A DNA stretch of 64,000 nucleotides from Alphaproteobacteria bacterium (GCA_051715325.1 JBPXJO010000034.1:14033-78032); one strand, 5' to 3'; positions 24,699-64,000 are shown, numbered from the stretch's first letter. Made by a program: numbers and translations. Notes: generated by a model not told the origin, from the letters alone.

Positions 24699-24785
24699 GC
24701 GGCCATGGCGGAATTGGTAGACGCGCAACGTTGAGGTCGTTGTGGGCATTAGCCCGTGGAAGTTCGAGTCTTCTTGGCCGCACCA
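24699..24785 (+). tRNA. tRNA-Leu (anticodon GAG)
   Basis: Cloverleaf: acceptor GCGGCCA/TGGCCGC, D-arm GCGGAATTGGTAGACGC, anticodon stem CAACG/CGTTG with loop TTGAGGT, long variable arm, T-arm GGAAGTTCGAGTCTTCT, encoded CCA. Confidence 0.85.
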
Positions 24786-38484: not shown

Positions 38485-38560
38485 GCCTAAGTAGCTCAGT
38501 CGGTAGAGCAAGCGACTGAAAATCGCTGTGTCGCTGGTTCGATTCCGGCCTTAGGCACCA
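38485..38560 (+). tRNA. tRNA-Phe (anticodon GAA)
   Basis: GCCTAAGTAGCTCAGTCGGTAGAGCAAGCGACTGAAAATCGCTGTGTCGCTGGTTCGATTCCGGCCTTAGGCACCA. The anticodon loop CTGAAAA gives GAA. CCA is encoded. Confidence 0.88.
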
Positions 38561-48636: not shown

Positions 48637-49746
48637 TCAGTTAGGGGCGCGTTCTTTGATCCTCGTCCCGACCGCGCTCGCCAGATCATTGACCGCCATC
48701 GGCTTGATATGGGAAGCCTGATCGATATTGAAAATCATGTAACGAAGCGTCGCATCATGGCGCGGCGCTTTGAGGTAAGGACGGGACAGCGCGAACAAAT
48801 CCCCACCGGCGCGGACAGTATCAAACGCCGCCGGATCGGTCACGCAAACCAAAGGCACAACGCGGATTGAGCCCTTCCCGTTCACGGTATCAGGCATCGT
48901 AAAAGCAGGAAGAGTGTATTTGACTTCCGGTTTCCCTTTGAACATATCGCTGCGAACCTGACGGGCAGAGGCATTGAAATGAAGCATGACGGGGTGGCGC
49001 TCCCCATGGAGAAGGTCATCAGCAAGAGCGATAAAGCGTGCAAAAGTTCCGGCATTAAACGAGCCGCGTCCCGAACATTGCGGGCCGTCAGATGGCTTGG
49101 AGTGACGGATGAGGAATTTGCGCCAAGCTGTTGCCGTATCACCATGAATAATTTGCGCATCCTTGAGGCGTTCAGGCGAAAGGCGTTTCATAATCCGGAA
49201 CAGATCCGCTGGAGTTTTCGCGGTAAAGCGCTCGCGGTCGGCAAGGTCGGCATTGGTGAGACGGATTTTTCCTTCTTCGTCGCGAATGACCAAAGACGGT
49301 TTAAACTCGCGCTGCCCCGAGGCTGAATTAAAGAAAGCTTCGCGCGCATTGCGGTGGAGGGTGTTCAGAAATATGACGGGCCCCTTGGAATAATCTTTAT
49401 CATCCGGAGATGGATCGCTCCCCTCTTCGGCGCGAAGATCACTGATACACCCATTCGCGTGGGCCGCTCCGTTCGCTTTTTTGAAATGGTTGCGGACTTG
49501 AATATTGTTCCCGCCTTGCGTGTAGGCATCGATATGGATCATACCCGCAACTTCGCAGTCGGGACAGACAATATGACCTTTATGAACATCGGGATTATAA
49601 AAGATGGCGGATTGATCGAGGACGCCCGAGCGCGGGCGTTCGGCTTCGAGAACAACGACCTCACCGCTCCGCTGGTCAATAACATGGCGGTATTTGACAC
49701 CGGAAAATTTGTCTTTGCGTTCACGCTTTGCAGCTTGTTGCGGCAT
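48637..49746 (-). CDS. hypothetical protein with CxxC...H...H...C cluster
   Basis: 369-aa ORF co-directional with and directly downstream of the pilin gene. Contains HIVCPDCEVAGMIH ... HFKKANGAAHANGC. No family recognised. Confidence 0.5.
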   Translation of the reverse strand: MPQQAAKRERKDKFSGVKYRHVIDQRSGEVVVLEAERPRSGVLDQSAIFYNPDVHKGHIVCPDCEVAGMIHIDAYTQGGNNIQVRNHFKKANGAAHANGCISDLRAEEGSDPSPDDKDYSKGPVIFLNTLHRNAREAFFNSASGQREFKPSLVIRDEEGKIRLTNADLADRERFTAKTPADLFRIMKRLSPERLKDAQIIHGDTATAWRKFLIRHSKPSDGPQCSGRGSFNAGTFARFIALADDLLHGERHPVMLHFNASARQVRSDMFKGKPEVKYTLPAFTMPDTVNGKGSIRVVPLVCVTDPAAFDTVRAGGDLFALSRPYLKAPRHDATLRYMIFNIDQASHIKPMAVNDLASAVGTRIKERAPN

Positions 49747-49905: not shown

Positions 49906-50691
49906 CTACTGGACCTTGGAGAAAACACCGCAAACAACGGCAGTGTTAACTTCTCGGTAGGCACTAGCAGCTGTAGTACCAAGGGTACAGTCAGCAGCAC
50001 CACCAGCAGCAGTACCGATCGCACGAACGCTACCGGTGTTTGGCATACCATCATCCACCTTACGGTCGATCGCAGCAGCTTGAACTGGCTGGAACGGAAC
50101 AGTCGTACCGGCAGCAACAGCACCAGCCGTATTAGCAGCCACTACATAATGGCCAGCTTGAAGTCCACCAGCAGCACCGGCGAAAGCGGTTGCAGCGACA
50201 ACGCCGTTGCTATAACCGAAGTTCCATACACCGCCGAGAGGGGTAGATGGGTGAGAGATGGTAGCTCCGAGAGCGGTGGCACCCGGGTTAACACCCCCGA
50301 GGAAACCGGCAGCACCGAGGTGAACGAAAGCGACACCAGCTTCTTGAGCAGCCGTAGCAGCAGCACCTGGATTGTTAGCCGTACCGGTTTGAACGAAACC
50401 GTCACCGTTACCAGCAACAGCACACATCGTTGCAGCCACACAGTTTGGCAGACGGGTGGTTGGGGTCTGGATATCGCCTGGCATTCCGCCGTACTTGTCA
50501 CGGAAACCGCTAAGACCGGATTCAACAGCTTTAACTTGAGCAACTGTCGAAGAAACACGAGCGTTGTTGATCAGTTCTTGGCCTTTCAGAATACCACCGA
50601 TCAGAAGACCGATAATAATCATCACGATCGCCAATTCCACGAGAGTGAAACCGCTCTCGGACTGACGTGTTTTGAGTGAAGTTTGTGTCAT
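49906..50691 (-). CDS. type IV pilin / pseudopilin with prepilin-type N-terminal domain, unusually long and Gly/Ala/Thr-rich
   Basis: Class III signal G|FTLVELAIVMIIIGLLIGG. C-terminal Cys pairs. RBS GGAG 8 nt upstream of the ATG (MTQTSLK). Confidence 0.8.
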   Translation of the reverse strand: MTQTSLKTRQSESGFTLVELAIVMIIIGLLIGGILKGQELINNARVSSTVAQVKAVESGLSGFRDKYGGMPGDIQTPTTRLPNCVAATMCAVAGNGDGFVQTGTANNPGAAATAAQEAGVAFVHLGAAGFLGGVNPGATALGATISHPSTPLGGVWNFGYSNGVVAATAFAGAAGGLQAGHYVVAANTAGAVAAGTTVPFQPVQAAAIDRKVDDGMPNTGSVRAIGTAAGGAADCTLGTTAASAYREVNTAVVCGVFSKVQ

Positions 50692-50902
50692 TGAGAACTC
50701 CATATAGATTGATGACATTTATAGATACCCCCCGCGACGAACGCCGCTTTGCAGTGACTCACGTCGAAGGCTCCAACAGTATATACAAAAATAGCCAGAA
50801 GACTATCCCGCATGTGTCAGAATGACCTATTTTTTATTAAAAAAGAGTAACTATACGGAACGTACATCCTCAATTTGTCAGAGTGAGAAGGTATTATATA
50901 AA

Positions 50903-51997
50903 CTAACCGGATATTTTTCTGGAATTCCGGTATTCGGATGGCGATTGGCCGACAATATCCTTGAAAACCCGATTGAACGTCGGCACCGAATTAAACCCGA
51001 CCTCTTCGGCGACCAGCGAAATCTGGGCATCCGTCTGCTCCAGAAGCTGAAGAGAATCCTGTACGCGTCTCTCATTGATAATTTGCGGCAAGCTTTTACC
51101 GTAAGCGAGACTTACTATACGGGAGACTCGGGTTTCGGAAACACCGAGCTCGCGCGCCAGAGCTGTTCGGGAAAAATTACCTTCCTGATAGATTTTCTCG
51201 AGATCAAACAAGCTTTGAAGTTTATCGGCCAATCCTTTGTCTTCATTGGAAACTTCAATTGCCGGCTCTTTTTTGTCCAACCGGACGGAAGGCGGGTAAA
51301 TGCGAAAAAGAGACGTCGACGCCAGATAAACCATCCCGCAACCGAGAATATCGCGCACCAGCAAAAAACTGATTCCGTCAATAGCTCCGGAGACGTGAAA
51401 CAAGCCCAGAGAAATTAACGCAAGGTTAATAACAATGAGCGAAATGATAAGCCAATAACGTTCACCTTTGGCCTCACGCTCCTGCCGCAAAAGATTAAGC
51501 GTATCACGCCCGAGCCAGACCGACATCAGCGACAAGGTTCCAAGAAGCGCACCCACGATCCCCATAAATTGCGAACGTTCACCGACATTACACACTGCCG
51601 CCACCGAACAATCCTGATCACCTAGAAAAGCACCCCCGCCCCACCCCAAAAGGAGGCCGAACAGCAAAACCGGAATATTGATCCAGAACAGCGCGCGCGG
51701 AAGAACGCCAAGATCGGCAATCTGCATAATCAGGAGAACCGATAGCGCCGGAATCATCATCCAGATCGCATCACGAACAATAATATGGGCGTAAAAGTTC
51801 GATACGAAACGAGTCGACGCGAAATCAAGGGCAAAGGAAACCAGCAAAAATCCGAAACACAGAACCGGAACAATCACATGTCGCCAATGTCCGGCCCGAA
51901 ACAGGATATAAACAATGACCGCCACACACTGTGTTAGCCCGATGATCGAAAAGAGATCAGAAAAAGACAAGGTCGTATTGGCCAGGGACAGGTTCAT
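50903..51997 (-). CDS. AraC-family transcriptional regulator with N-terminal polytopic membrane domain
   Basis: About 230 aa with 6-7 hydrophobic helices, followed by a C-terminal AraC HTH pair (...GFNSVPTFNRVFKDIVGQSPSEYR). Confidence 0.75.
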   Translation of the reverse strand: MNLSLANTTLSFSDLFSIIGLTQCVAVIVYILFRAGHWRHVIVPVLCFGFLLVSFALDFASTRFVSNFYAHIIVRDAIWMMIPALSVLLIMQIADLGVLPRALFWINIPVLLFGLLLGWGGGAFLGDQDCSVAAVCNVGERSQFMGIVGALLGTLSLMSVWLGRDTLNLLRQEREAKGERYWLIISLIVINLALISLGLFHVSGAIDGISFLLVRDILGCGMVYLASTSLFRIYPPSVRLDKKEPAIEVSNEDKGLADKLQSLFDLEKIYQEGNFSRTALARELGVSETRVSRIVSLAYGKSLPQIINERRVQDSLQLLEQTDAQISLVAEEVGFNSVPTFNRVFKDIVGQSPSEYRNSRKISG

Positions 51998-52728
51998 AAA
52001 CCCTTACATAGTTCATCCTGCTTCTTTTGCACAGGACTTAATATGGTATTACAGAGATAATCGACCATAAAATTGACCTCGGTCGGGTCCATGCCGACCG
52101 TATCATTTTTCAGCATCTCGACAATCATACCGTACGCCATATCTTTCTCGCCCATTTCGGATGCGACAATCGCCTTCATCTGAAGCGGCCAAGCCGGCAT
52201 TCCCGGGCGATAGGTCTCCGCAAGCTCATCCGCAAGCTCTAGTGCCAGCTTGTCATTTTTAAGTTTGTGCTTAGCCAGAAACACAGCCTGCCCGAGCCAG
52301 CGCCATTTATCCTTTTCGGGATACTTTCCGACTTTCCGGAGATACTCGATCACCGGATAGAGCTGCTCGGGGTTTTGGGTCGAACCGAAATAATAACCGG
52401 CCAGCCACGGCGCGTATTCGGACTCGGAATTGAGTTGGTCCGTCATCATCAGCCATTTGCCCACGTTATCATAGTTGTAATCTTTGAGGGCGTGATCGCG
52501 TCCGGTCTCATTACCAAACGCCTGAAGGGCCAAAACACTAGTCCTATAGCCGACTTCGCGATCACCCAGAAAAGCAGCCGCCACCGCCACAGGGCTCGGG
52601 GGCTCGGGAACATTAGCCCAGTTCGGATGCTCGCGAGAAGAATACGTCCAAAGAGCTAATTGTGCGGAAAACGCAACGGCAAACACCAGAACCGGACGAG
52701 ATAACCAGAAAAACGTGGATTGGGCCAT
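51994..52728 (-). CDS. hypothetical protein with N-terminal signal anchor
   Basis: 244-aa ORF overlapping the downstream AraC gene start by 4 nt. No domain recognised. Confidence 0.45.
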   Translation of the reverse strand: MAQSTFFWLSRPVLVFAVAFSAQLALWTYSSREHPNWANVPEPPSPVAVAAAFLGDREVGYRTSVLALQAFGNETGRDHALKDYNYDNVGKWLMMTDQLNSESEYAPWLAGYYFGSTQNPEQLYPVIEYLRKVGKYPEKDKWRWLGQAVFLAKHKLKNDKLALELADELAETYRPGMPAWPLQMKAIVASEMGEKDMAYGMIVEMLKNDTVGMDPTEVNFMVDYLCNTILSPVQKKQDELCKGL

Positions 52729-52746
52729 AGCGATCCCCCCTCCCCG

Positions 52747-53517
52747 CTAAAACTGCTTGCGGCGCAGATCAATAATTGTAGCTGACAAAACGAGCGTCAG
52801 AAAGACGCCGGCCTGCACCACAACAAAGATCCAATCTTGCAAGCGTGGGCCGCCATAAATCAGCCATGAAGTTTGCGCCATCAAATCAAAACGCGGAATA
52901 ATGAGAGAAACAACTTTGGTCACACCGACAACCAGCTTCATGCCGTCCGTGGTCGCCATCGCCGGATGCAAGGCAATCGACAAGAACCCGCCCATCAGCC
53001 GCGAGAGAACATAAAAACCGAGCGTCCCGAGACCAGCCGTCACCGGAGACGTTAACACCATGGAAAAAAAGAACGCCATATTGCAGACAATAACAAATTC
53101 AAACGTTACGCCAAGGCTCCACAGAGCAACCCCGTCTTGCTCGCCATAATGCATGGACAAAAGACCGAGGATCAGCGAAAGAAACGCGCCGCAAATCAAT
53201 CCCAAAAATGTAAAGCCTGCAGCAAGAGAGAGAACAAATCCCCCGCGCGAAACCGGACGGGTCAGCAGGAACTCGATGTCACGGGAATCGTAGGAGCGCC
53301 TTACAAAAAAGACGACAAACAATGATAATCCGATCAAGGCCAGAATGCGCAGACCACCCGCCATATAGGCCACAACAAATTGATCTTGCTCGATCGACGC
53401 CGCAGAGCCGGAGAAAAAGGAAAGACAGGCTCCAAGGACAAAAATGGCGAGGAGACCCCACACCATTTTGTCACGAAGCGCCGCTTTGAGAACGTAGCGT
53501 ATAACGTGTAAGGACAT
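52747..53517 (-). CDS. ABC-2 type transporter permease
   Basis: About 256 aa with 6 TM segments and an ABC-2 (NosY/GldF-like) pattern. Confidence 0.7.
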   Translation of the reverse strand: MSLHVIRYVLKAALRDKMVWGLLAIFVLGACLSFFSGSAASIEQDQFVVAYMAGGLRILALIGLSLFVVFFVRRSYDSRDIEFLLTRPVSRGGFVLSLAAGFTFLGLICGAFLSLILGLLSMHYGEQDGVALWSLGVTFEFVIVCNMAFFFSMVLTSPVTAGLGTLGFYVLSRLMGGFLSIALHPAMATTDGMKLVVGVTKVVSLIIPRFDLMAQTSWLIYGGPRLQDWIFVVVQAGVFLTLVLSATIIDLRRKQF

Positions 53518-53533
53518 CAGACCCTACCGGAAA

Positions 53534-55594
53534 TTAAAGTTTTTCCGGACGACGGTCTTGGCTGAATGTCTTGTACAACTCACGGTCCGTATTATGGATG
53601 CTGTCATTGGCATCATTCAGGATAGTCGCTTTCAGGAAAATCACCAATTCGGATTTTCTTATATTGCCACCCTGATTGCGGAAAAGTCCGCCCAAAATCG
53701 GGATCTCGCCAGCAACCGGAACGCCTTCGCGGTTAGATGTCGACGAGTCTTGCAACAGACCGCCCATAACCATCAGTTGACCGGAACGCATATCGACCAC
53801 CGAGTCAACTTCCTGAACGTTCACAACCGGAATCGGGGACTCGATTGTACCGCCCGATGCAAACGTAACCGACGGATCGTTCACATATTCGGAAATTTTC
53901 GTCACAGTCGGACGCAACTGCATCGCAATGGTGCGTTTATCAAGGTTGATCGAAGGAAGAACGTTAATCAGGACACCTTCCGGAACGGTTTTGATTTCCG
54001 AATCAACATCGGTACTGACGTTGGTGTTGGTTCCATCCGACGTCGTGTCACGCTGGACTTTCAATTCGAAATAAACCTGGTTACGCGCAACGTTCAGCAC
54101 AGCCGATTGGTTATTGATAACGGTCAAACGCGGGCTAGCCAGTGCATGGACTGTCCCAAAGCGCGAGATTGCATCAACAAGAGAGGTAATGCTATCGCCA
54201 CTTACGCTAAACGATATTGCGTTGCTCGATGCGACACCGAAAGCCGGCTTGGCAAAGTTTGCAGACAAACCGATATCGCCAAATGTTTTCAGGAAGTCCC
54301 AGTTGATACCGGTCGCGTATTCATCCGAAAGCGAAACTTCGAGAACTTTTGCTTCGATCAGAACCTGAGCCGTCGACGAGCGTTTCAGTTCGTCAAGATA
54401 CTCGGTTACTTTTTTGTGCAAGCGTTCGTTCGCATAAACCGAGATCAGGCCGGCTTGCTTGTTGATCGAATAGCTCGGAGTAAAGGTAACCGAGTTTTGT
54501 CCGGTTGAGCCGCCCGACAAGCTGGTTGGCAGCGACTCGATACGAAGAGTCGGCGGCTGGTTGGTGACAGGCGCGGTTGGAGCTCCCTCGCTGATGCTGA
54601 CCGGAGCTGGCTGAGCCGATGAAGGCACGGCAGCAGGAGCCGAAGACGGAACCGGCGGCAATGTTGCGTCGGATGGAGGGGTAGCCGTCGCTGTCGCAGA
54701 TGCATCCACGGTCGCCGGCGGGGTCGATGGAACAGAAACAGGGGAGGAAACGTAAACCTCTTCGCCGGCTTGCGGAGTAACCGAAGCCGCGCCCGAAGCC
54801 CCGCCCTCGCCGATAGCGGCCGCATCAATTGGCGGAACCGGAGGAGTGACCGGAGCAGGTGTGCTCACAGCAATTTGCGGATCATCCGACGTTTTCAGGT
54901 AGCTGCCCGAAGCATTCGAATCGAGGATTTGTTTCAGGTTGACATCCAGCTCACCCCAGAAGTCGGCGGTCGAGTCGCTCGAAACCTGGAACTGGGAACC
55001 ACCTTTAACGCCGCCGCTTTCGCCGCCGCTGCTGGCAACGCTCACGTCGGTTTTCATCGAGCTGGTGTTCTTACGGACAAAGCTCAGGTAATCGATTTTA
55101 TAGTTTTTGGTATAAGGGGTATCGAGTTCGATACGCAGGGTGTTTTCATCAAATTTGTAACGAAGACCGGCGATCTCGCAAATGCGGTCGATAACGACAT
55201 CCATCGGCTTGTTGCGTGCGGTGAAAATGATCGAGCCTTGAATACGTGGATCAAGCTCGATATCGAAATCGGATTGTTTAGCCATCTCGAACAGAGCTTC
55301 ACGCAGAGGAATGCTCTGGTTAATCGCGATCGAAACGAGCGGCATTGGAGGAAGTTTCTGGACATCGTCGGCGACGTATGGCTGCAGATCAGGCACGCCC
55401 TCCGCTACCGGAGCATCCCCGAGGCCAGCTTCACGCGGCGACATCATATCGCGGAAATCCTGAAACTCGCTATTGGTCGAGCGGTCCATTTTCGTGTGGT
55501 TATTCGCCAGATCACAACCGGTGGCCGGAAGGAAGACGGTCAGCGCAACGAGGCTGGTTACCGTGCTCTTGAGACAAAAGGGTTTCAGCGCCAT
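53534..55594 (-). CDS. secretin (PilQ/GspD family), lipobox-containing
   Basis: C-terminal secretin domain (GEIPILGGLFRNQ...LVIFLKATIL), N0/N1-like domains, a Ser/Pro/Thr/Ala-rich linker and an N-terminal lipobox LPATGC. Confidence 0.88.
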   Translation of the reverse strand: MALKPFCLKSTVTSLVALTVFLPATGCDLANNHTKMDRSTNSEFQDFRDMMSPREAGLGDAPVAEGVPDLQPYVADDVQKLPPMPLVSIAINQSIPLREALFEMAKQSDFDIELDPRIQGSIIFTARNKPMDVVIDRICEIAGLRYKFDENTLRIELDTPYTKNYKIDYLSFVRKNTSSMKTDVSVASSGGESGGVKGGSQFQVSSDSTADFWGELDVNLKQILDSNASGSYLKTSDDPQIAVSTPAPVTPPVPPIDAAAIGEGGASGAASVTPQAGEEVYVSSPVSVPSTPPATVDASATATATPPSDATLPPVPSSAPAAVPSSAQPAPVSISEGAPTAPVTNQPPTLRIESLPTSLSGGSTGQNSVTFTPSYSINKQAGLISVYANERLHKKVTEYLDELKRSSTAQVLIEAKVLEVSLSDEYATGINWDFLKTFGDIGLSANFAKPAFGVASSNAISFSVSGDSITSLVDAISRFGTVHALASPRLTVINNQSAVLNVARNQVYFELKVQRDTTSDGTNTNVSTDVDSEIKTVPEGVLINVLPSINLDKRTIAMQLRPTVTKISEYVNDPSVTFASGGTIESPIPVVNVQEVDSVVDMRSGQLMVMGGLLQDSSTSNREGVPVAGEIPILGGLFRNQGGNIRKSELVIFLKATILNDANDSIHNTDRELYKTFSQDRRPEKL

Positions 55595-55718
55595 GGTATA
55601 AAAACTCTTCTAGAAAATAAGGTTGTGGTGGGACCGCTGCACGATAGAAAAATGCAACAACGGAACTGATTCTACCTCAATTTTCAGAGAATTACTATAG
55701 CAAGCCGATAAAGAAAAT

Positions 55719-56846
55719 TTATTCGGACATTACGAGCAGCGACGTGTCCATGGACGAGAGCCCTGAACCACCTGCCCCAAGCTTGACTTGCTGCATTTTA
55801 ATTTTCATATCGCCAGGGACATCGCACTGCGCAATAGCCGTCTCTTCGGTGATAACGCCCGATAAATAAAGCGCGAGCAACGACTGGTCGAACGACGCCA
55901 TACCGATATTCTGGTTTGCCTCCATCACATCGCGGATCTTGGAAATCTTGCCTTCCAGAATAAGCTCTTTCACGAGCCCCTGATTGAGCATCACCTCGAG
56001 CGCCACCGTCATACTATTATTGATGGTCGGCACAAGGCGCTGGGAAATGATCCCGCGCAGGTTGGTCGACAGGTTAAGCCGGATCTGCTGGTGCATATCC
56101 TCACTAAACAAGTTCACAATCCGTTCAATGGCTTGGTACGAATTGTTCGTGTGAATGGTTGCCAAACACAAATGTCCGGTTTCGGCAGCGGTAAGGGCCT
56201 GCTCCATCACATCACGGTCACGAATCTCGCCAACCAGAATAACATCGGGACGTTGGCGAAGAGCGTTTTTGAGCGCAATCGCGTAATTCTCTGTATCTAC
56301 ACCGATTTCCCGTTGTGTCACGACGCAGCTTTTGTGCTCGTGATAATATTCGATCGGGTCTTCGATAGTAATGATATGCCCTTGCGTGTGGGAATTCCGG
56401 TAATCGATCATCGACGCCAGAGTGGTCGATTTCCCCGAACCGGTCATACCGGTCACAAGGATCAACCCGCGCTTGAGCATCGAAAGCTGCTTCATGATCG
56501 GCGGCAATCGCAATTCATCAAACGTTGGAATCCGCGAGATAATACGTCGGATCACAAGCGCAGGATTTTGACGCTGCTGAAGGATATTCACGCGGAAACG
56601 TCCATGGCTGCCCATATCGATCGCCGTGTTCAGTTCCATTTTCATTTCAAAATCGCGGCGCTGGCGCGTGGTCAAAATGGTGGAAAGAATATCATTCATC
56701 ATGGTCGTATCGAGCACTTGAGAAGATACAGCCACCAGACGATCATCGACACGCAGAGTAGGAGGAACGCCAACCGTCATATAGAGATCGGTAGCATTCT
56801 GCCGATCCATTTGCAGCAACAGGGAATAAATCAGCGGTTCGCTCAA
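55719..56846 (-). CDS. pilU: PilT-family retraction ATPase (PilU-like paralogue)
   Basis: Walker A GMTGSGKSTT and PilT-family Asp/His boxes. Overlaps the upstream pilT stop by 4 nt. Confidence 0.85.
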   Translation of the reverse strand: MSEPLIYSLLLQMDRQNATDLYMTVGVPPTLRVDDRLVAVSSQVLDTTMMNDILSTILTTRQRRDFEMKMELNTAIDMGSHGRFRVNILQQRQNPALVIRRIISRIPTFDELRLPPIMKQLSMLKRGLILVTGMTGSGKSTTLASMIDYRNSHTQGHIITIEDPIEYYHEHKSCVVTQREIGVDTENYAIALKNALRQRPDVILVGEIRDRDVMEQALTAAETGHLCLATIHTNNSYQAIERIVNLFSEDMHQQIRLNLSTNLRGIISQRLVPTINNSMTVALEVMLNQGLVKELILEGKISKIRDVMEANQNIGMASFDQSLLALYLSGVITEETAIAQCDVPGDMKIKMQQVKLGAGGSGLSSMDTSLLVMSE

Positions 56847-57985
56847 AACGAGTATCCTTCTTCAGAGCCGGCAGCCGACGCATCCGGTTCAGCGGAGCGG
56901 CCTGGAGCCGATTTTTTGGATGTGGAGGAAGTTTCATGCTCACTCCCGCCTTCATCAGTAGCTTTCATCAATGCGGCGCGTGCCTCTTCCTCGTCAATAA
57001 TCCCCTGATCGAGCAAGCTGTTCACGGAATCTTCCATGGTCACCATGCCGTAACGCGATCCGGTCTGGATCATCGAATACATTTGCGGAATCTGGTTTTC
57101 ACGAATGAGGTTACGAACCGCGTTGGTTCCAACCAGAACCTCGAAGGCGGCCACACGGCCTTCCCCGCCCTTACGACGCAGGAGCGACTGGGCGACAACC
57201 CCTTGAAGCGAGCTTGACAGCATCGCACGGATCATTTCCTTATCGCCGGTCGGGAACACGTCGATAATACGGTCGATGGTTTTGGCGGCCGAGCTCGAGT
57301 GAAGGGTTCCGAATACCAAGTGACCGGTTTCAGCAGCGGTCAAAGCCAGAGAAATCGTTTCGTGGTCACGCATCTCCCCCACCAGAATAACGTCAGGGTC
57401 TTCACGGAGAGCGGATTTCAGCGCGCGCGAGAAGCTTTGCGTATCGTTTCCAAGTTCGCGGTGGTTGACCAGCGCTTTTTTGGATGTATGGAAGAATTCA
57501 ACCGGATCCTCAACGGTCAAGATGTGTTTCGGCATCGTCTCGTTAATATGGTTGATCATCGAGGCCAGCGTTGTCGATTTACCCGAACCGGTCGGACCGG
57601 TCACAAGGACGATCCCTTTTTCAAGTTCGGCAAAGCGGCGCATGATCGGCGGAAGATCAAGCTCTTCCATCGATGGAATAACAGACGGAATGGTACGGAA
57701 CACGGCCGCCGCCCCGTTACGGTTGGTGAAAGCGTTCACACGGAAACGGGCTTTCTCGCCAAAAGAAATAGCAAAGTCGAGCTCGAGATTCTTTTCATAC
57801 TCGGCGCGCTGATCGTCAGTCATGATCGAATAGAGCATACCGCGAATGCTCTCATTGCTGAGCGCTTCGGATTTAAGGCGTTTCAACTGGCCATACACAC
57901 GAACAATCGGAGGATTGTTAGCGCTCAAATGCAAATCCGACGCTTTGTTCTGCATCACGAATGCAAGTAGTTGAGTAATATCCAT
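56843..57985 (-). CDS. pilT: twitching motility ATPase PilT (with Ser/Glu-rich C-terminal extension)
   Basis: Walker A GPTGSGKSTT and the strongly PilT-like motif HLVFGTLHSSSAAKTIDRIIDVFP. Confidence 0.9.
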   Translation of the reverse strand: MDITQLLAFVMQNKASDLHLSANNPPIVRVYGQLKRLKSEALSNESIRGMLYSIMTDDQRAEYEKNLELDFAISFGEKARFRVNAFTNRNGAAAVFRTIPSVIPSMEELDLPPIMRRFAELEKGIVLVTGPTGSGKSTTLASMINHINETMPKHILTVEDPVEFFHTSKKALVNHRELGNDTQSFSRALKSALREDPDVILVGEMRDHETISLALTAAETGHLVFGTLHSSSAAKTIDRIIDVFPTGDKEMIRAMLSSSLQGVVAQSLLRRKGGEGRVAAFEVLVGTNAVRNLIRENQIPQMYSMIQTGSRYGMVTMEDSVNSLLDQGIIDEEEARAALMKATDEGGSEHETSSTSKKSAPGRSAEPDASAAGSEEGYSF

Positions 57986-58086
57986 AACGGTCCTCCAGAG
58001 GTTTTAAACCCGCACACTATTTTTACTGACAAATTACAAACGGAAGGTAAATATTTGGCGACTTTCCATCGGGCCTGAAAATATTT

Positions 58087-58596
58087 TTAGACCAGACTCA
58101 AGACTACCATTCCCCCCAACGATAATAAACCCATAACAACCAGAGAACGGGGCACTTTTTGCGGCTCGCGCACAACCGAAACCCCTAGGGCAACGACAAA
58201 AGGAATAAGAAAAGCGAAGACAAGAGACACGGCGAACCGCCCGTCAAGGCAAAAGAAAATCGCCGCCGTCAGCCCCGAGATCAACTCCAGAAGAGGATAA
58301 ATCGCACTGATCGGATTACGACAATATCGGCACTTGCCGCGAAGACCGATCCACGACAGAACCGGAACGAGGTCCATAAAGCCAAGCTGATGATCGCAAT
58401 TCGGGCAACGGGATCGGGCCGCCCCGCCCTGCCGTTCATCGCTTCGGGTAAATTGATTGACGATCCAGCTTTCACCGCGCAAAGCCCGGTAAGATATCGC
58501 CGAGGCAAAACTGCCCATCGACGCCCCGATCCAGAAGAACCAGAAGGACAGCAGCGCCAGACCTAAAGCGTCCACCGGTAGTGTCGACTGAAACAT
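58087..58596 (-). CDS. prepilin peptidase homolog, N-terminal Cys-tetrad domain only (A24 aspartyl-protease motifs absent)
   Basis: PilD-like N-terminus with CPNC...CRYC. The protein ends after about 3 TM helices at 169 aa. No GGGDVKL-type motif. Downstream DNA is the AT-rich pilT promoter, not a peptidase remnant. Confidence 0.65.
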   Translation of the reverse strand: MFQSTLPVDALGLALLSFWFFWIGASMGSFASAISYRALRGESWIVNQFTRSDERQGGAARSRCPNCDHQLGFMDLVPVLSWIGLRGKCRYCRNPISAIYPLLELISGLTAAIFFCLDGRFAVSLVFAFLIPFVVALGVSVVREPQKVPRSLVVMGLLSLGGMVVLSLV

Positions 58597-58620
58597 AAAT
58601 ACCCTACAAACCCGCGGCGA

Positions 58621-60426
58621 CTAGTTTCCGCGAAGGCGGGTCAGGCGATCATAGATCATATCGCGCGACACCGCACTGGCCCCGCTCGAAGTAGCGTCCA
58701 CTTCAAGGGATTTCTCGTAAAAATCAACGGCGCGCGCGTAGTTACCCGCCTTTTCGGAGATAACCGCCAAATTGAAATAATGCTGGGCATTATTCGGCTC
58801 CATCGACGACGCCAGAGAAAGGTAACGATAAGCATCCTCAAGATTGCCGGTGTTGGCATAAGCTACACCAAGCTGCGCGGCAATTGCAGGATTGTCCGGA
58901 TAACGGGCACGAAGGCTAAGCAATTTTTCAAGAGCGACGGCCGGCATTTGCTTGGTCACAAGACCGCTTAAATTCACGACCGCTTCGGCGTTATTCGGAT
59001 TGATCGCCAACAGCTCTTCATAAGTAGAAATCGCGCGATCATTTTCGCCGAGCTTCTGGAAGAGGACGGCGCGCCCCATCAAAACGCGAGGCTCGCGGGG
59101 GTTAAGCGAATAAAGCTCGTCATACATCTGGCGTGCCGCATCATAACGGGCCAACTTCAGCGCGCGATTAGCCGAAACGATCTTGGATTCCAGACTGGTG
59201 GTTTCAATCACAACCTTCTGGTTCATCGAGGACGAGGAATGGGATGGCGATTTAGGTGGCTTCGGCTTCGTTTTCGAATTCGAATTCACGATAATCAGGC
59301 TCTCGGTTTTTCCACGCTTGGGGTCCATAGACGGAGCCGGAAGACGGGACATGATATCACCCGGGGGCGCATCAAAATATTTGGTCGCTTGCTCTTTCTC
59401 TTCGGCAATTTTCATGTCGGCTGCATTTTCGGCCGGAGTGGCCGAACCGTCGGCAGGACCAGAATCAGACACGTTTACTTTGGTCGGATCAACACCCTCA
59501 TCATTAAGAAGGGTCGGACCTTTATCTTCAATAGGCTTAGGCTTGAAAATTTTGGCATTTTCAACTTTTGGAGTCGAAACCACCGGAGCATCGGCTTGAG
59601 GCGGCGCGGCCACCGTTTCGGTTGGTGGAGGCAAAACAGCATCGGACGGCGGAACAGCGGGAGCCGTATCGGCAGGAACAGGAGCAACCGCCTGATCCAC
59701 AGGTGGAGGAACATCATTCGCAGCAATCGGCTGAACAACGTCAGGCGACGGCACAGCAACATCCGCAGGAGTCAACGGAGGAACAGCGGCAGGAGCCGGA
59801 GCATCCGGCGATGGAGCGACATTGGCCTCCACTACAGGAGCGGGAGCCGGAGTTGGAGTTGGAACCGAACCGGAATTGGAGCTCGCATCGGCGATCGGCT
59901 CGGGCTGCGGTGGCATATCAGCTCCGTCAAGCGGCGATGGCGCCGCACCGGTGCCAGCCGAATTCACATCATCCGGAGAAGGCGCAGGAACCGGAGCCGC
60001 ACCTGAATCGGTTGGTGCAGTCGTGGCCGCAACCTCGCCCATCTGGAACGACGGCAAAGTTACATCTTCACCGGCAACACTGCCGGTCAGATTATGTTTT
60101 ATTTTTTCGATAGCGGCAGGATCGCTGAGGTAAAAATACCCCCCTGCTCCGGCAACAGCCAGAAACGCAACAGCCGCGAGCAAACCGGTCGAGGATGATT
60201 TTTTCGGACGCTTGGTCTCGTTCTGGGGAGCGGCAAAAATTCCGTCTTCATCCGAACCGTCATCCAGATCATTAAATCCGGACAAATCATCGGAAGCTGA
60301 ATAGGGTGCGTCGACGATATCGCCATCGGCGGCATCCCGGTTACGGCGTTCGGGCGCGGTCTCGTCGGTCGAGGAATACAAATTCTCGAATTCGTTCGGA
60401 TCGTTAGTGTTGTCGTTGTTAGCCAT
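58621..60426 (-). CDS. TPR-repeat protein with acidic N-terminus, single TM and Pro/Ala-rich linker
   Basis: C-terminal ~250 aa are TPR repeats. Mid-region is PAPAPV-type low complexity. One TM (LLAAVAFLAVAGAGGYFYL). Confidence 0.75.
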   Translation of the reverse strand: MANNDNTNDPNEFENLYSSTDETAPERRNRDAADGDIVDAPYSASDDLSGFNDLDDGSDEDGIFAAPQNETKRPKKSSSTGLLAAVAFLAVAGAGGYFYLSDPAAIEKIKHNLTGSVAGEDVTLPSFQMGEVAATTAPTDSGAAPVPAPSPDDVNSAGTGAAPSPLDGADMPPQPEPIADASSNSGSVPTPTPAPAPVVEANVAPSPDAPAPAAVPPLTPADVAVPSPDVVQPIAANDVPPPVDQAVAPVPADTAPAVPPSDAVLPPPTETVAAPPQADAPVVSTPKVENAKIFKPKPIEDKGPTLLNDEGVDPTKVNVSDSGPADGSATPAENAADMKIAEEKEQATKYFDAPPGDIMSRLPAPSMDPKRGKTESLIIVNSNSKTKPKPPKSPSHSSSSMNQKVVIETTSLESKIVSANRALKLARYDAARQMYDELYSLNPREPRVLMGRAVLFQKLGENDRAISTYEELLAINPNNAEAVVNLSGLVTKQMPAVALEKLLSLRARYPDNPAIAAQLGVAYANTGNLEDAYRYLSLASSMEPNNAQHYFNLAVISEKAGNYARAVDFYEKSLEVDATSSGASAVSRDMIYDRLTRLRGN

Positions 60427-60506
60427 ATCAGATCACCCGGACGGATAAATGGAACAGAAAGAAAAGCGTTCGGGCAGAACACCCGAAGCGCCTTATTGTA
60501 TCGTAT

Positions 60507-61268
60507 TTACGCTGCTTTGCCTAGAAGCATTGATTCGGCGTTGATAATTTTTAGAAAGGCCTTCTCGAGCGTCTCTTGGGCCGTTTGGGTCTTCATCCCT
60601 TCGGTAGTCCCGAGATATGGCGTATCCCCTTGGTGCACAACCATTACGCGATCGCAAATCTCGTCCATGTCCGAGAGGATGTGACTGCTAAGAAGCACCG
60701 TCCGGCCCTGTGTTTTAAGATCAAGGAACATTCCTTTAACCAAGGCGCGAGCCAGAGGATCAAGTCCGCTCATCGGCTCGTCAAAAATCAGGATTTGGCA
60801 TCCGGTCAAAACCGTCGCAATCAATCCGAGCTTCTGGCGCATTCCTTTCGAGTAAGTCTGAACCCGACGAGGCAAAACATCAGGATCAAGCGCTAACAGA
60901 TTGCAAAACCGCTTCTTTTCATCATTCGATACGCCCCGCCCATAAAGGGAGGCCGCGAAATCGATAAACTCACCGCCAGTCAAGAACCACGGCGGATCAA
61001 ACCGCTCCGGCAAATAGGATATATCGTAGCGGGCAGCGGCATTCTGGGTCGATCGACCAAACACATCAACCGTACCGGACATCGGATCCTTTAAGCCGAG
61101 AATGGTTTTAACCAATGTAGTCTTGCCGGCCCCGTTCAGCCCGATCAGACCAAACGTCTCTCCGGCTGTAACATTCAGATGAACACCATGAAGAACCTCA
61201 CGCGCACCATAACCGGCGCGCAGGTCGTTCACATGAATCGCGCTAGGGTTTGGGACAACGTCGCTCAC
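60507..61268 (-). CDS. ABC transporter ATP-binding protein
   Basis: Walker A GLNGAGKTT, signature MSGLDP and Walker B ILIFDEP. The GTG start at 61268 overlaps the upstream stop (GTGA). The track's longer ORF, with a start at 61370, lies inside the upstream gene. Confidence 0.85.
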   Translation of the reverse strand: MSDVVPNPSAIHVNDLRAGYGAREVLHGVHLNVTAGETFGLIGLNGAGKTTLVKTILGLKDPMSGTVDVFGRSTQNAAARYDISYLPERFDPPWFLTGGEFIDFAASLYGRGVSNDEKKRFCNLLALDPDVLPRRVQTYSKGMRQKLGLIATVLTGCQILIFDEPMSGLDPLARALVKGMFLDLKTQGRTVLLSSHILSDMDEICDRVMVVHQGDTPYLGTTEGMKTQTAQETLEKAFLKIINAESMLLGKAA

Positions 61269-61918
61269 GACTGGGTACGTCCGGGCAAGAAAATCTTGCT
61301 GTCGATATTGAAACGCTGGTTCGGGCGCAAACGGATCGGATAAATCTGGGCCGTAACCTGATCGTACCATTTCAACTCGATAAAGTCCTTATACACCTTG
61401 ATATCGACCACTTCCGCCGGAATAGCGTCCGGAGTGATGCGGGTTCCGTTCATATAAACGACCCAGTCATTTTCTTTATTGTACAAGATACCGGCCAACG
61501 ACACTTCGCGCAGGGAATGCGGCGGACGGTAGTTCGGATCATTCGGATCACCCGAGTCCTTGAGGTCCTGCATGGTCGGAACGCGGGTGTTGAAACCAAC
61601 GCGCGCTTCGCGAAGAAGAGCATATTGCGATGTGGTAAAGAACAGCGATGGCACTTGGGAGCGAGAATAAACCTGCTTCTTGTACTTGGCCTTGATCTCT
61701 TTCTCGATACTCTGGAGGATTTTGACTTCCGGAGGGAGCTGATCCTGAGACAGACCGGACACCGAGTCAATCGTTCCGAAAATTGGTTTGGCTGGGGCTT
61801 CAGCAGGAGGCGGCGTCCCTACAGGCGGAGCCACGGATGCATCTTGCGCCGAACCCGCCAGCGGAAAAAATGACACCGCCGCAAGGGACAGGACAAACGG
61901 AAGAGAACGAGCGGTCAT
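61265..61918 (-). CDS. secreted protein, PilP-like by position and architecture
   Basis: Signal peptide, Pro-rich segment, then a ~140-aa domain. Sits between the PilO-like gene and downstream genes. Assignment is positional and low confidence. Confidence 0.45.
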   Translation of the reverse strand: MTARSLPFVLSLAAVSFFPLAGSAQDASVAPPVGTPPPAEAPAKPIFGTIDSVSGLSQDQLPPEVKILQSIEKEIKAKYKKQVYSRSQVPSLFFTTSQYALLREARVGFNTRVPTMQDLKDSGDPNDPNYRPPHSLREVSLAGILYNKENDWVVYMNGTRITPDAIPAEVVDIKVYKDFIELKWYDQVTAQIYPIRLRPNQRFNIDSKIFLPGRTQS

Positions 61919-61919
61919 G

Positions 61920-62564
61920 TTATTTTCCTCCCGCAGCAGGTGCTGAGCTGTTGCTAGATGTCATAGTGCGCCAATCGAACTGGAAATCCCCTCTAATCAA
62001 AGGAACAGGCTTGCCCGAACCGATCTGGCGAAGCATGGCTGCGTTAAGCGCTTCCGCGCGCTCGAGACTGACTTTGGTAATATCGACACTCCCCGGGAAA
62101 CGTTCTTGCATAAACTTGACCAGAGAATAAACATCCACGTCATCAAGACTTTCGATATCGACAGTTCCACGGCTCTTGACGACGATCTGGCTGGCTTGAT
62201 CTGCCATATCGTTTGGCACAACCGCACCAGCGTCAAACTTGAGCTTGGCCTTGAGGATACCGACTCGGGTCGAAAGCTTGGAAAAGTTTTCGATTGCGGT
62301 CGCACGATCCTGGTCATTAAAGAAACCGCGAGCTTCGAGGTCCTTGAATGTCCGTAGCTGGCTCTGAAGAAGCACAAACTCTTCTTTCATGCGCGCCACT
62401 TCATCATATTTGGCCTGTACAGCCGATTTGGTCGTAGCCAATTGCTGCTCAACCTGCTCGCGCTCGGGGATCACGTAATCATAAACGACGTACCCGGCTC
62501 CGCCCGCGAACGCGAGCAGCGCGAGAATGAAATAGACAACTTTGTTGGAAAGTCCCTTAACCAT
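61920..62564 (-). CDS. PilO/PilN-type bitopic pilus alignment protein (PilO-like)
   Basis: Short cytoplasmic N-terminus, one TM, a coiled-coil, then a periplasmic domain of about 130 aa. Confidence 0.45.
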   Translation of the reverse strand: MVKGLSNKVVYFILALLAFAGGAGYVVYDYVIPEREQVEQQLATTKSAVQAKYDEVARMKEEFVLLQSQLRTFKDLEARGFFNDQDRATAIENFSKLSTRVGILKAKLKFDAGAVVPNDMADQASQIVVKSRGTVDIESLDDVDVYSLVKFMQERFPGSVDITKVSLERAEALNAAMLRQIGSGKPVPLIRGDFQFDWRTMTSSNSSAPAAGGK

Positions 62565-64000
62565 TTTTAGCCACTCTCTTCACGACGATTTCGGCATGAT
62601 ACCGGTCGTCCGATTTACGTTGGGTCGCTGTGTACCCGAATTCGCTTTCAGCCACACCGCGGAAACTCAAATCCTGAAGCGGCTTGCTCACAGCAGCCAC
62701 GTAACCGGAATCTTTCATTTTCTCGTTCAGGCGACCGACCAGCTTGTCGATTTCCTCATTCCCCTCTTTGGGTTTGATCGATCCGGCAAAACTGACATAA
62801 AGGGTGATATGGGTATTACGGTCGGCAACAACAGGATCCGTTGATTTAGACTTGATTGGCTCGAGGCCCTCATTGACGAATTCGAATTTATCGAGACGTA
62901 TCGTTTCGAGCTCGCGCGAGATCATATCAAGCAAATACAACGGATCAACCTTGGCCAGATTGATTGAATCGCTGATAGCCAAAGATCCTTTAACCAGAGG
63001 AACATCGATCCCCATCTTTTGCTTACGGATCAACTCTTCCTGATAGATATTCTCGATCTTTTGTTTCTGGATCATGGCGACTTCAAGATTAACCGAGGCG
63101 CGGTACATTTTAAGGGCCTCATCTGCCGCCATCCCCAACGCGCCGCACGCGGCAACCGCACCGACAAGCATAACAACCTGAGCCACCAAGCGCGGCTGCT
63201 GGAGTGTCTGGATATCGCGAGAGGCCAGCGGTAAATCAATAACCAGTTTACTGCCAACCCATCCGGCGTGCAGGACTTCGGAGAAATGCTCATCGGCATC
63301 AGAAGTCAACTTCAGACCAAGATGTTTGGCCGCCTCGGCAACCTTAAGGACCATATAATTGCATGGTGCATAGATCATGCTCTCAAGAGCTTCGGTATAG
63401 GTCGGGTCACCGACCACCAGAATATCCAACCCGTCTTCCGGCGTATAACCGAAACGCGCCAGATAACTCAAAGTCGCTTGAAGTTCTTGCGAAACATCGG
63501 CCGCCCACACCCCTGGGTTTTCCGGGGAAGGTTCGACCACCGGAGTAACACGGGTCAAAGCCAACTCGCCATCCCGCACAACGATCTGGCGAAGACCACC
63601 GCCGCGATGCTGGGAAATCAGGATAGACCAGCGCGCCGTACCGACACCGAAGGATTTCTGGGCAATCTTTTTAACCAGCATATCGACCATGCCGGTCGAT
63701 TCAACCGGCAACAACCCGTAACCGGAAATCTGGACATCGGTATTCTGGAGAGCGAGCATCACACGGCCAAATGACTCGGTCGACGGAACAGCCGCAAAGA
63801 GATACAAATCACCTTTATTGGTTGTCTCTTTGGCTCCTTTGGCTGAAGCGCCACCACCAGCGGCCTTGAGCGCTTTAGTTCCCTCTTTAAGGACCATTGC
63901 AGCGCGCATCGAGAAATTCGGAAAAGCCACATTAAGGCGACGCTGGACGATATTTACCCGGTCGAACATGGTAATAACCGGAACCTTTTCCTTACGGTAA
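62557..64000 (-). CDS. PilM-like protein fused to a PilN-like TM+periplasmic module (5' partial, continues beyond window)
   Basis: The frame stays open to the window edge. About 250 aa of cytoplasmic domain, then a TM (LVAQVVMLVGAVAACGALGMAA), then about 190 aa of coiled-coil/periplasmic region. Confidence 0.45.
   Translation of the reverse strand, partial: YRKEKVPVITMFDRVNIVQRRLNVAFPNFSMRAAMVLKEGTKALKAAGGGASAKGAKETTNKGDLYLFAAVPSTESFGRVMLALQNTDVQISGYGLLPVESTGMVDMLVKKIAQKSFGVGTARWSILISQHRGGGLRQIVVRDGELALTRVTPVVEPSPENPGVWAADVSQELQATLSYLARFGYTPEDGLDILVVGDPTYTEALESMIYAPCNYMVLKVAEAAKHLGLKLTSDADEHFSEVLHAGWVGSKLVIDLPLASRDIQTLQQPRLVAQVVMLVGAVAACGALGMAADEALKMYRASVNLEVAMIQKQKIENIYQEELIRKQKMGIDVPLVKGSLAISDSINLAKVDPLYLLDMISRELETIRLDKFEFVNEGLEPIKSKSTDPVVADRNTHITLYVSFAGSIKPKEGNEEIDKLVGRLNEKMKDSGYVAAVSKPLQDLSFRGVAESEFGYTATQRKSDDRYHAEIVVKRVAKNG

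Follow-up and report, generated by a model that had tools for sequence, protein, structure and literature searches.

A 64,000-nucleotide stretch of DNA from an Alphaproteobacteria bacterium (GCA_051715325.1, JBPXJO010000034.1:14033-78032; hereafter the window, with positions counted from its first base) carries on its minus strand a train of genes that raises the question of which surface machine it encodes, since an initial annotation described it as a type IV pilus (T4P)-like cluster of non-canonical order, devoid of both the extension ATPase PilB and the platform protein PilC. Open reading frame (ORF) calling gives an unbroken run of long ORFs from the window end to position 49906, confirming that the gene train is real. 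We conclude that the locus is very probably a complete retractile type IVa/MSHA-like pilus operon of a Micavibrio-like predatory alphaproteobacterium: its pilus character and its unusual order stand, whereas the loss of motor and platform does not. The window holds the larger part of one operon of about 18 kb, two genes of which lie beyond base 64000.

An operon that continues past the window edge

The two genes at issue are found on a second contig (L001), which is 99.24% identical to window positions 52563-64000, with the alignment exact up to base 64000 (L001 base 10216). Directly upstream and on the same strand, L001 encodes a PilB/MshE-type ATPase and a PilC/GspF platform protein. The missing PilB and PilC are therefore an artefact of the window edge: their absence is true of the window and false for the locus, and the check just beyond base 64000 that the initial annotation had advised finds both. 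The same edge cuts the first gene of the window, C, which encodes 552 amino acids (aa) rather than the 470 first read; a protein 100% identical to the window part of C (P0001) has 552 aa, other C homologues have about 550, and the full gene occupies L001 10001-11659. The L001 ATPase matches T2SSE with 403 bits, MshEN (PF05157) with 43 bits and the MshE-type cyclic di-GMP (c-di-GMP) motif model NF053729 with 64 bits (cutoff 38), a predicted binding motif. It scores 519 bits with PilB (TIGR02538) and 497 with GspE (cutoff 630), and the platform scores 305 bits with GspF (cutoff 424) and 260 with PilC, all below the equivalog cutoffs. In the direction of transcription, the operon comprises the following genes, listed together with the ORF that comes after it.

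L001, directly upstream, same strand: gene A (pilB/mshE), PilB/MshE-type ATPase, 628 aa
L001, directly upstream, same strand: gene B (pilC), PilC/GspF platform, 368 aa, T2SSF domain
62557..64000, minus strand: gene C, PilM-PilN fusion-like inner-membrane scaffold, 552 aa, with the first ~72 codons past the window end
61920..62564, minus strand: gene D, bitopic 214-aa protein in the PilO/GspM position, candidate PilO analogue
61265..61918, minus strand: gene E, 217-aa periplasmic protein with a predicted PilP/GspC/GspB-type HR (secretin-binding) β-domain
60507..61268, minus strand: gene F, ABC-2/DrrA-type ABC transporter ATPase, 253 aa, GTG start
58621..60426, minus strand: gene G, TPR protein, 601 aa, with a membrane anchor, a long Pro/Ala-rich linker and C-terminal TPRs
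58087..58596, minus strand: gene H, remnant of the prepilin peptidase PilD, 169 aa, keeping the A24 N-terminal four-Cys domain
56843..57985, minus strand: gene I, PilT retraction ATPase, TIGR01420 478 bits (cutoff 319), AVRNLIRE motif
55719..56846, minus strand: gene J, second PilT-family ATPase, PilU-like, TIGR01420 419.5 bits (cutoff 319)
53534..55594, minus strand: gene K, outer-membrane secretin, MshL-like lipoprotein, Secretin (PF00263) 111 bits
52747..53517, minus strand: gene L, ABC-2 family permease, six membrane helices by hydropathy, ABC2_membrane_2 31.4 bits (cutoff 27.2)
51994..52728, minus strand: gene M, conserved 244-aa orphan
50903..51997, minus strand: gene N, polytopic membrane protein with a C-terminal AraC-type helix-turn-helix (HTH), HTH_18 71 bits at residues 280-358
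49906..50718, minus strand: gene O, major pilin candidate, likely start ATG at 50691, 261-aa precursor
48637-49746, minus strand: gene P, 369-aa ORF, membership in the system uncertain, followed by sucB

Profile hidden Markov models (HMMs) uphold the initial labels of ABC ATPase, TPR protein, A24 N-domain-only protein, PilT, second PilT-family ATPase, lipobox secretin, ABC-2 permease and long pilin, and the membrane AraC regulator is borne out by its HTH and about six helices. As first noted, the order is unlike the Pseudomonas layout, with the ABC ATPase, TPR, PilD and PilT/PilU genes between the PilP-like gene and the secretin gene, directly after which comes the ABC-2 permease gene. The start/stop overlaps described for the cluster can also be read at the junctions: ATGA at M/N (distance -4), TTGA at I/J (-4, J overlapping I by 4 nt) and GTGA at E/F (4 nt, given the GTG start at 61268), along with 8 nt at C/D (-8) and a distance of +1 at D/E. 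The widest gaps in the train are the 184 bp before the pilin gene (50719-50902) and the 159 bp after it. These overlaps and short gaps indicate operonic coupling. A promoter and terminator scan gave nothing above shuffled expectation, and a sigma-54 promoter candidate upstream of the pilin gene, judged by eye, was rejected for failing the consensus spacing.

The layout is not a one-off. Scanning one genome per species for a pattern turned up 177 genomes that encode a relative of C, and the best 80 were taken for comparison. In about 70 of these 80, tblastn with all operon proteins recovers the same 13-gene order from pilB to M (A-M), and the departures are mainly short contigs; the synteny comparison proposed by the initial annotation thus shows an invariant A-M arrangement. 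The 80 are all metagenome-assembled genomes (MAGs) labelled Micavibrio, Pseudobdellovibrionaceae (the family in which NCBI files Micavibrio) or Alphaproteobacteria, apart from one contig labelled Alcanivorax. That contig (L033, JBQDYD010000004.1), from a MAG labelled as the gammaproteobacterium Alcanivorax sp., carries the full operon, and the other contigs are labelled as Micavibrio-like or as unclassified Alphaproteobacteria, Rhodospirillales or Pseudomonadota; horizontal transfer is a less probable explanation of the Alcanivorax label than a mistake in binning or labelling.

Several features were seen around the operon. Approximately 3.7-4.1 kb past the window end lies a conserved gene for a protein of 144-150 aa (L001:6124-6558, minus strand; also in L005, L006 and L007), which is divergent from pilB/mshE in many genomes, has no Pfam or NCBIfam match and might regulate or assist the operon. 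An EAL-domain gene (L001:2981-4363, minus strand; also in L005 and L007), which encodes a candidate c-di-GMP phosphodiesterase, is located some 2.5 kb upstream of the gene for the ATPase with the c-di-GMP motif. In Micavibrio aeruginosavorus ARL-13 the counterpart of this neighbourhood (GMV_739-745) is located elsewhere in the genome and holds three prepilin-type genes, possibly minor pilins. On the other side of the operon, P gave no match in Pfam, NCBIfam, PADLOC or PDB sequences, and is followed at 48579-48553 by a terminator-like hairpin whose stem measures 11 bp. An Rfam scan of the 64-kb window yielded two tRNA genes (24699-24782 and 38485-38557, both plus strand) as the sole matches at the gathering threshold, with no riboswitch near the operon. 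A 658-aa protein with a PcfJ-like domain, a family typical of conjugative elements, is encoded at 12622-14598 (plus strand) among housekeeping genes (thrS, secD, malic enzyme, a PBP1-type enzyme and ppdK).

Scaffold, secretin and pilin

C, D and E gave no match in Pfam or NCBIfam, also when each member of their family alignments of 41-43 sequences was searched, nor in PADLOC as single proteins, and their family profiles retrieved nothing relevant from PDB sequences. The initial annotation had labelled them PilM/N-, PilO- and PilP-like and had itself named a lack of T4P homologues by HMM as a reason for giving up the cluster; taken literally, this lack applies to all three proteins, and fold comparison rescues C and E. 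The AlphaFold2 model of C (mean pLDDT 82.4) consists of an actin-like fold (residues 1-330), a coiled coil and a C-terminal αββ-αββ domain, with a single membrane helix at 343-361 by hydropathy. Its best Foldseek matches are P. aeruginosa PilM (5eou, E=1.7e-10) and the PilM chain of the M. xanthus type IVa pilus (T4aP) machine (3jc8_Ma), followed by FtsA and then by the cytoplasmic domain of GspL (E 4e-06). The αββ-αββ layout is known from the periplasmic domains of PilN, PilO, GspL and GspM. The predicted structure hence supports a reading of C as a PilM-PilN fusion.

For E, the model contains a confident eight-stranded β-domain (residues 138-211, pLDDT >93). Foldseek with this model returned no significant match; direct superposition is best on GspB, with the HR domain of GspC also matched, and at modest Z scores it points to a fold of the HR type as in GspB, PilP and GspC. 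The PilO-like label of D finds no HMM support in Pfam, NCBIfam or the PDB profile search. D has an N-terminal membrane helix (residues 9-27) followed by a coiled coil, none of its 41 family members matches Pfam, and its family profile finds coiled-coil matches only among PDB sequences. An hhalign comparison of the D and C families, in search of a PilN/PilO-type relation, gave a probability of 1.4% and aligned the membrane helix and coiled coil alone. The family is large, with 976 representatives at E<=1e-3 in a profile search of 1.84 billion representatives (the matches listed are the best 150 of the 976 and reach E~1e-32), and D directly follows C in every genome compared.

Beyond the scaffold, the question is whether the machine extends a pilus or drives secretion. 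The locus could instead encode a type II secretion system (T2SS), whose pseudopilus piston would export the hydrolytic enzymes of a predator, a reading that we regard as unlikely. The platform scores higher with GspF than with PilC and the ATPase about equally with GspE and PilB. Like GspL, C combines within one chain an actin-like (PilM-like) domain, a lone membrane helix and a periplasmic domain (ferredoxin-like in GspL), and the β-domain of E superposes on components of the T2SS. For the N-terminal 60 aa of the pilin, GspG is the best-matching model, and the ARL-13 genome paper of 2011, which reports "multiple dispersed pil genes", assumed a T2SS without GspC, G, H and K (PMC3189940). Several points stand against this reading. 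C is closer to PilM than to GspL in its Foldseek E values. The GspG match (29 bits, cutoff 89) is confined to the N-terminal 62 positions of the model, and the mature pilin has about 247 aa as against about 140 in GspG. The genes for GspH-K were not found in the operon, and the GspD, GspE and GspF equivalog cutoffs are all missed.

Other evidence argues for a pilus. Both I and J exceed the cutoff of the PilT model, and the pair is kept in the operon in all genomes compared; canonical T2SSs are not known to have retraction ATPases. Among the secretin models, K fits MshL best (TIGR02519, 218.4 bits, below the cutoff of 250.2) and far better than GspD (106 bits, cutoff 351) or PilQ (83 bits, cutoff 284), and its lipobox, continuing into CDLANN, is kept in 57 of 68 orthologues. 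The protein encoded by O is the sole one in the window with a pilin-like N-terminus. It carries a class III signal peptide with the predicted cleavage site SESG/FTLVEL (G-1, F+1, E+5), matches N_methyl with 27 bits (cutoff 21) and has a Gly/Ala-rich mature part. A 261-aa pilin is likewise called in L088, and a pilin gene lies downstream of M also in L042, L045 and L084, whose loci are long enough. The PilT-family pair, the MshL-preferring secretin, the pilin of about 247 aa and the lack of GspH-K therefore favour a retractile MSHA-like pilus over a secretion piston. Since none of the PilB, PilC, MshL, GspD, GspE or GspF equivalog cutoffs is reached, we place the system as a variant beside the MSHA and canonical T4aP families and not within either of them.

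The resemblance to the V. cholerae MSHA pilus lies in the MshEN domain and c-di-GMP motif of the ATPase, in a lipoprotein secretin whose best model is MshL and in the presence of a TPR protein within the assembly operon, as with MshN. MshI is a single PilM/PilN-like protein, followed by the small MshJ and MshK. The TPR protein G has a membrane helix at residues 82-100, several TPR Pfam families at 419-578 and weak NCBIfam matches to PilW, Tgl and GltE, all below cutoffs; the Pro/Ala-rich linker between anchor and TPR domain is hypervariable, so that orthologues differ in length across species (248-714 aa). In contrast to MSHA (mshIJKLMNEGF / mshBACDOPQ), the gene order differs, an ABC transporter and M are present, the PilT/PilU genes lie inside the operon (elsewhere in Vibrio) and C, D and E match no MSHA, PilN or PilO HMM. 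No MshM-type ATPase turned up at the locus, for which no MshM model was searched with. With P. aeruginosa T4aP the system shares the inventory of extension ATPase, platform, PilM-like protein, HR-domain protein, secretin, PilT, PilU, pilin with class III signal and PilD N-domain. It differs from that organism (pilMNOPQ, pilBCD, pilA, pilTU) in the PilM-PilN fusion, the orphan sequences of the scaffold, the single operon, the embedded ABC transporter and, in the window lineage, a PilD without peptidase domain.

An ABC ATPase and a membrane component inside the pilus cluster are also found in M. xanthus, where PMC3724824 and PMC6060248 describe the T4aP machinery in one cluster and, citing Wu et al. 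1998, PilG, PilH and PilI as needed for pilus formation. The M. xanthus pilGHI genes are contiguous, whereas F and L are five genes apart, with the secretin gene between them, in every genome compared; M. xanthus further has separate, HMM-recognisable PilM, PilN, PilO and PilP and a catalytic PilD. F (also 253 aa in L001) matches ABC_tran with 79 bits and has DrrA as its best NCBIfam model (147 bits), ahead of GldA (121 bits), both far below cutoffs. A gliding-motility transporter of the GldA/GldF type was rejected, given the GldA score of 121 against 403 bits and a permease without NCBIfam match. In the genomes compared, L always follows the secretin gene and M always follows L. M has two invariant cysteines (C226 and C241) and no match in Pfam, NCBIfam or PADLOC; its profile retrieved only the LapB TPR from PDB sequences, at E~1.4. 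Most likely, the transporter assists the handling of pilin or secretin within the envelope. N, with about six hydrophobic segments, is the presumed local regulator.

The PilD remnant

H matches A24_N_bact with 84 bits, lacks any Peptidase_A24 match and, in alignment with full-length orthologues, lacks both catalytic Asp motifs; it is thus not a bifunctional prepilin peptidase. Most related genomes encode a PilD of 250-281 aa with a Peptidase_A24 match and the motifs VID[FL]EH and GLGDVKF. Of 77 related genomes, 45 keep both motifs, which are dead or absent in the other 32. Two altered forms occur, one of full length with both motifs replaced and no A24 match (seven genomes), the other short (125-207 aa, mostly 152-176) and ending about 50 residues past the N-domain. 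The series from active through motif-replaced to N-domain-only PilD can be followed across gene H in L001-L087, including the window (58087-58596, minus strand), L006:15113-15940 and L007:15739-16605. In a neighbour-joining tree of the C proteins, the whole clade of the window carries altered forms and short forms recur in another clade that branches within the active ones, which indicates that the peptidase half was lost at least twice.

Such losses might mean that the operon is a relic decaying in the window lineage, which we consider highly improbable. The catalytic domain is indeed absent in the window and dead or absent in the whole surrounding clade, and no other A24 peptidase was found in the 64-kb window. 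Yet every other operon gene is intact across dozens of species of the same clade, the pilin retains its canonical cleavage site, and the truncation is clean and in frame, with the next gene starting 101 bp downstream of H and at about 100 bp in the other truncations. In close species pairs, dN/dS (ω) is 0.01-0.23 across the seven genes tested (D, E, F, G, H, K and L), with the values weighed against decay lying at 0.01-0.16; this indicates purifying selection, and on these grounds a relic operon was rejected. Short H itself has an ω of ~0.14 at a dS of 0.25, compared with 0.09-0.12 for active PilDs. Together with the clean in-frame truncation and the invariant CxxC...CxxC motif, this value argues that the remnant is a functional protein. 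The N-terminal part of PilD has been credited with a zinc-dependent N-methyltransferase activity. The simplest reading is that H acts either as a methyltransferase alone or in a structural capacity, while another enzyme cleaves in trans. Beside its flp pilin gene, ARL-13 encodes a further A24 peptidase, annotated as Tad-type (GMV_531).

ARL-13 and the proposed role of the pilus

In M. aeruginosavorus ARL-13, the genes GMV_1544-GMV_1530 match the operon gene for gene by annotation and length.

GMV_1544: ATPase, 1929 nt
GMV_1543: T2SS-F, 1221 nt
GMV_1542: hypothetical, 1767 nt
GMV_1541: hypothetical, 645 nt
GMV_1540: hypothetical, 693 nt
GMV_1539: ABC transporter, 699 nt
GMV_1538: TPR, 1590 nt
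GMV_1537: leader peptidase, 825 nt
GMV_1536: PilT, 1191 nt
GMV_1535: twitching-motility family, 1095 nt
GMV_1534: secretin, 1881 nt
GMV_1533: membrane protein, 771 nt
GMV_1532: hypothetical, 765 nt
GMV_1531: AraC, 1071 nt
GMV_1530: prepilin, 744 nt

The initial annotation had asked whether a well-studied relative has an identical, already described locus. By annotation and gene size ARL-13 does have it; the locus sits in the published genome but was never described there as a unit. In the RNA-seq data for attack and attachment phase, respectively, the expression indices are 34.5 and 196.5 for the pilin, 0.1 and 18.5 for the secretin and 0.9 and 7.8 for PilT (PMC3189940, Additional file 4).

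Several points weigh against a complete retractile MSHA-like pilus of this organism. C, D and E are without sequence-level homology to any T4P family, and as ATPase, platform and secretin score below the NCBIfam equivalog cutoffs, the subtype assignment is approximate. The operon PilD is non-catalytic and the 64-kb window holds neither another A24 peptidase nor a minor pilin, so that function depends on genes outside it. The likening of F, L and M to M. xanthus PilH, PilI and PilG is an analogy of gene content, and the ARL-13 correspondence is one of annotation and gene length rather than of aligned sequence. In the same data set (PMC3189940) expression of housekeeping genes increases at attachment as well, so that the ARL-13 expression shift is not specific.

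On balance we favour the pilus and propose the following hypothetical working of the system, in which (i) the PilB/MshE-type hexameric ATPase would drive pilin polymerisation on the PilC/GspF platform, as their domains suggest, with c-di-GMP possibly controlling the ATPase through its N-terminal motif; (ii) C, D as the putative PilO analogue and E would link this inner-membrane motor to the MshL-type lipoprotein secretin K; (iii) the fibre, built from the long Gly/Ala-rich pilin O, would be retracted by PilT and perhaps also by its PilU-like paralogue, in keeping with their family membership; (iv) the leader would be cleaved by another A24 peptidase encoded elsewhere, the operon PilD having lost its aspartyl-peptidase half, and the four-Cys N-domain protein H probably retains an N-methyltransferase or structural role; (v) the split ABC-2 exporter F and L, with M, may be accessory parts integral to the machine, as the analogy with M. 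xanthus PilGHI suggests; and (vi) the membrane AraC protein N probably controls expression of the pilin or the operon. From taxonomy and the ARL-13 RNA-seq data, the likely role of the fibre would be prey attachment or close contact in epibiotic predation.

The core logic of the operon is ordinary. Its unusual traits are three: PilMN, PilO and PilP analogues of orphan sequence, an ABC transporter that is split and accompanied by M, and a PilD whose peptidase half was lost repeatedly. More tentatively, and with the odds somewhat against it, these traits could define a distinct type IV filament sub-type that combines an HMM-invisible scaffold, an obligatory split ABC-2 transporter with M and a peptidase-independent PilD N-domain. 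In such a sub-type the N-domain may perform N-methylation in trans or a structural job, with cleavage by a Tad-type or other A24 peptidase, and this independence would have permitted the two or more losses of the peptidase half.

As obligate predators, Micavibrio-like bacteria have been put forward as living antibiotics, and how they hold their prey is not understood. Conservation of the operon in the Micavibrio-like genomes compared and the pilin index of ARL-13 at attachment make it a concrete candidate for the attachment device, and it is the only complete retractile-pilus machine seen at the locus. For annotation, the analysis concerns three conserved components that are called hypothetical everywhere and a locus that the published genome paper took for a T2SS with parts missing. 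PilD has repeatedly lost its peptidase half while purifying selection has preserved the N-domain, a natural experiment that could separate the two activities of prepilin peptidases.

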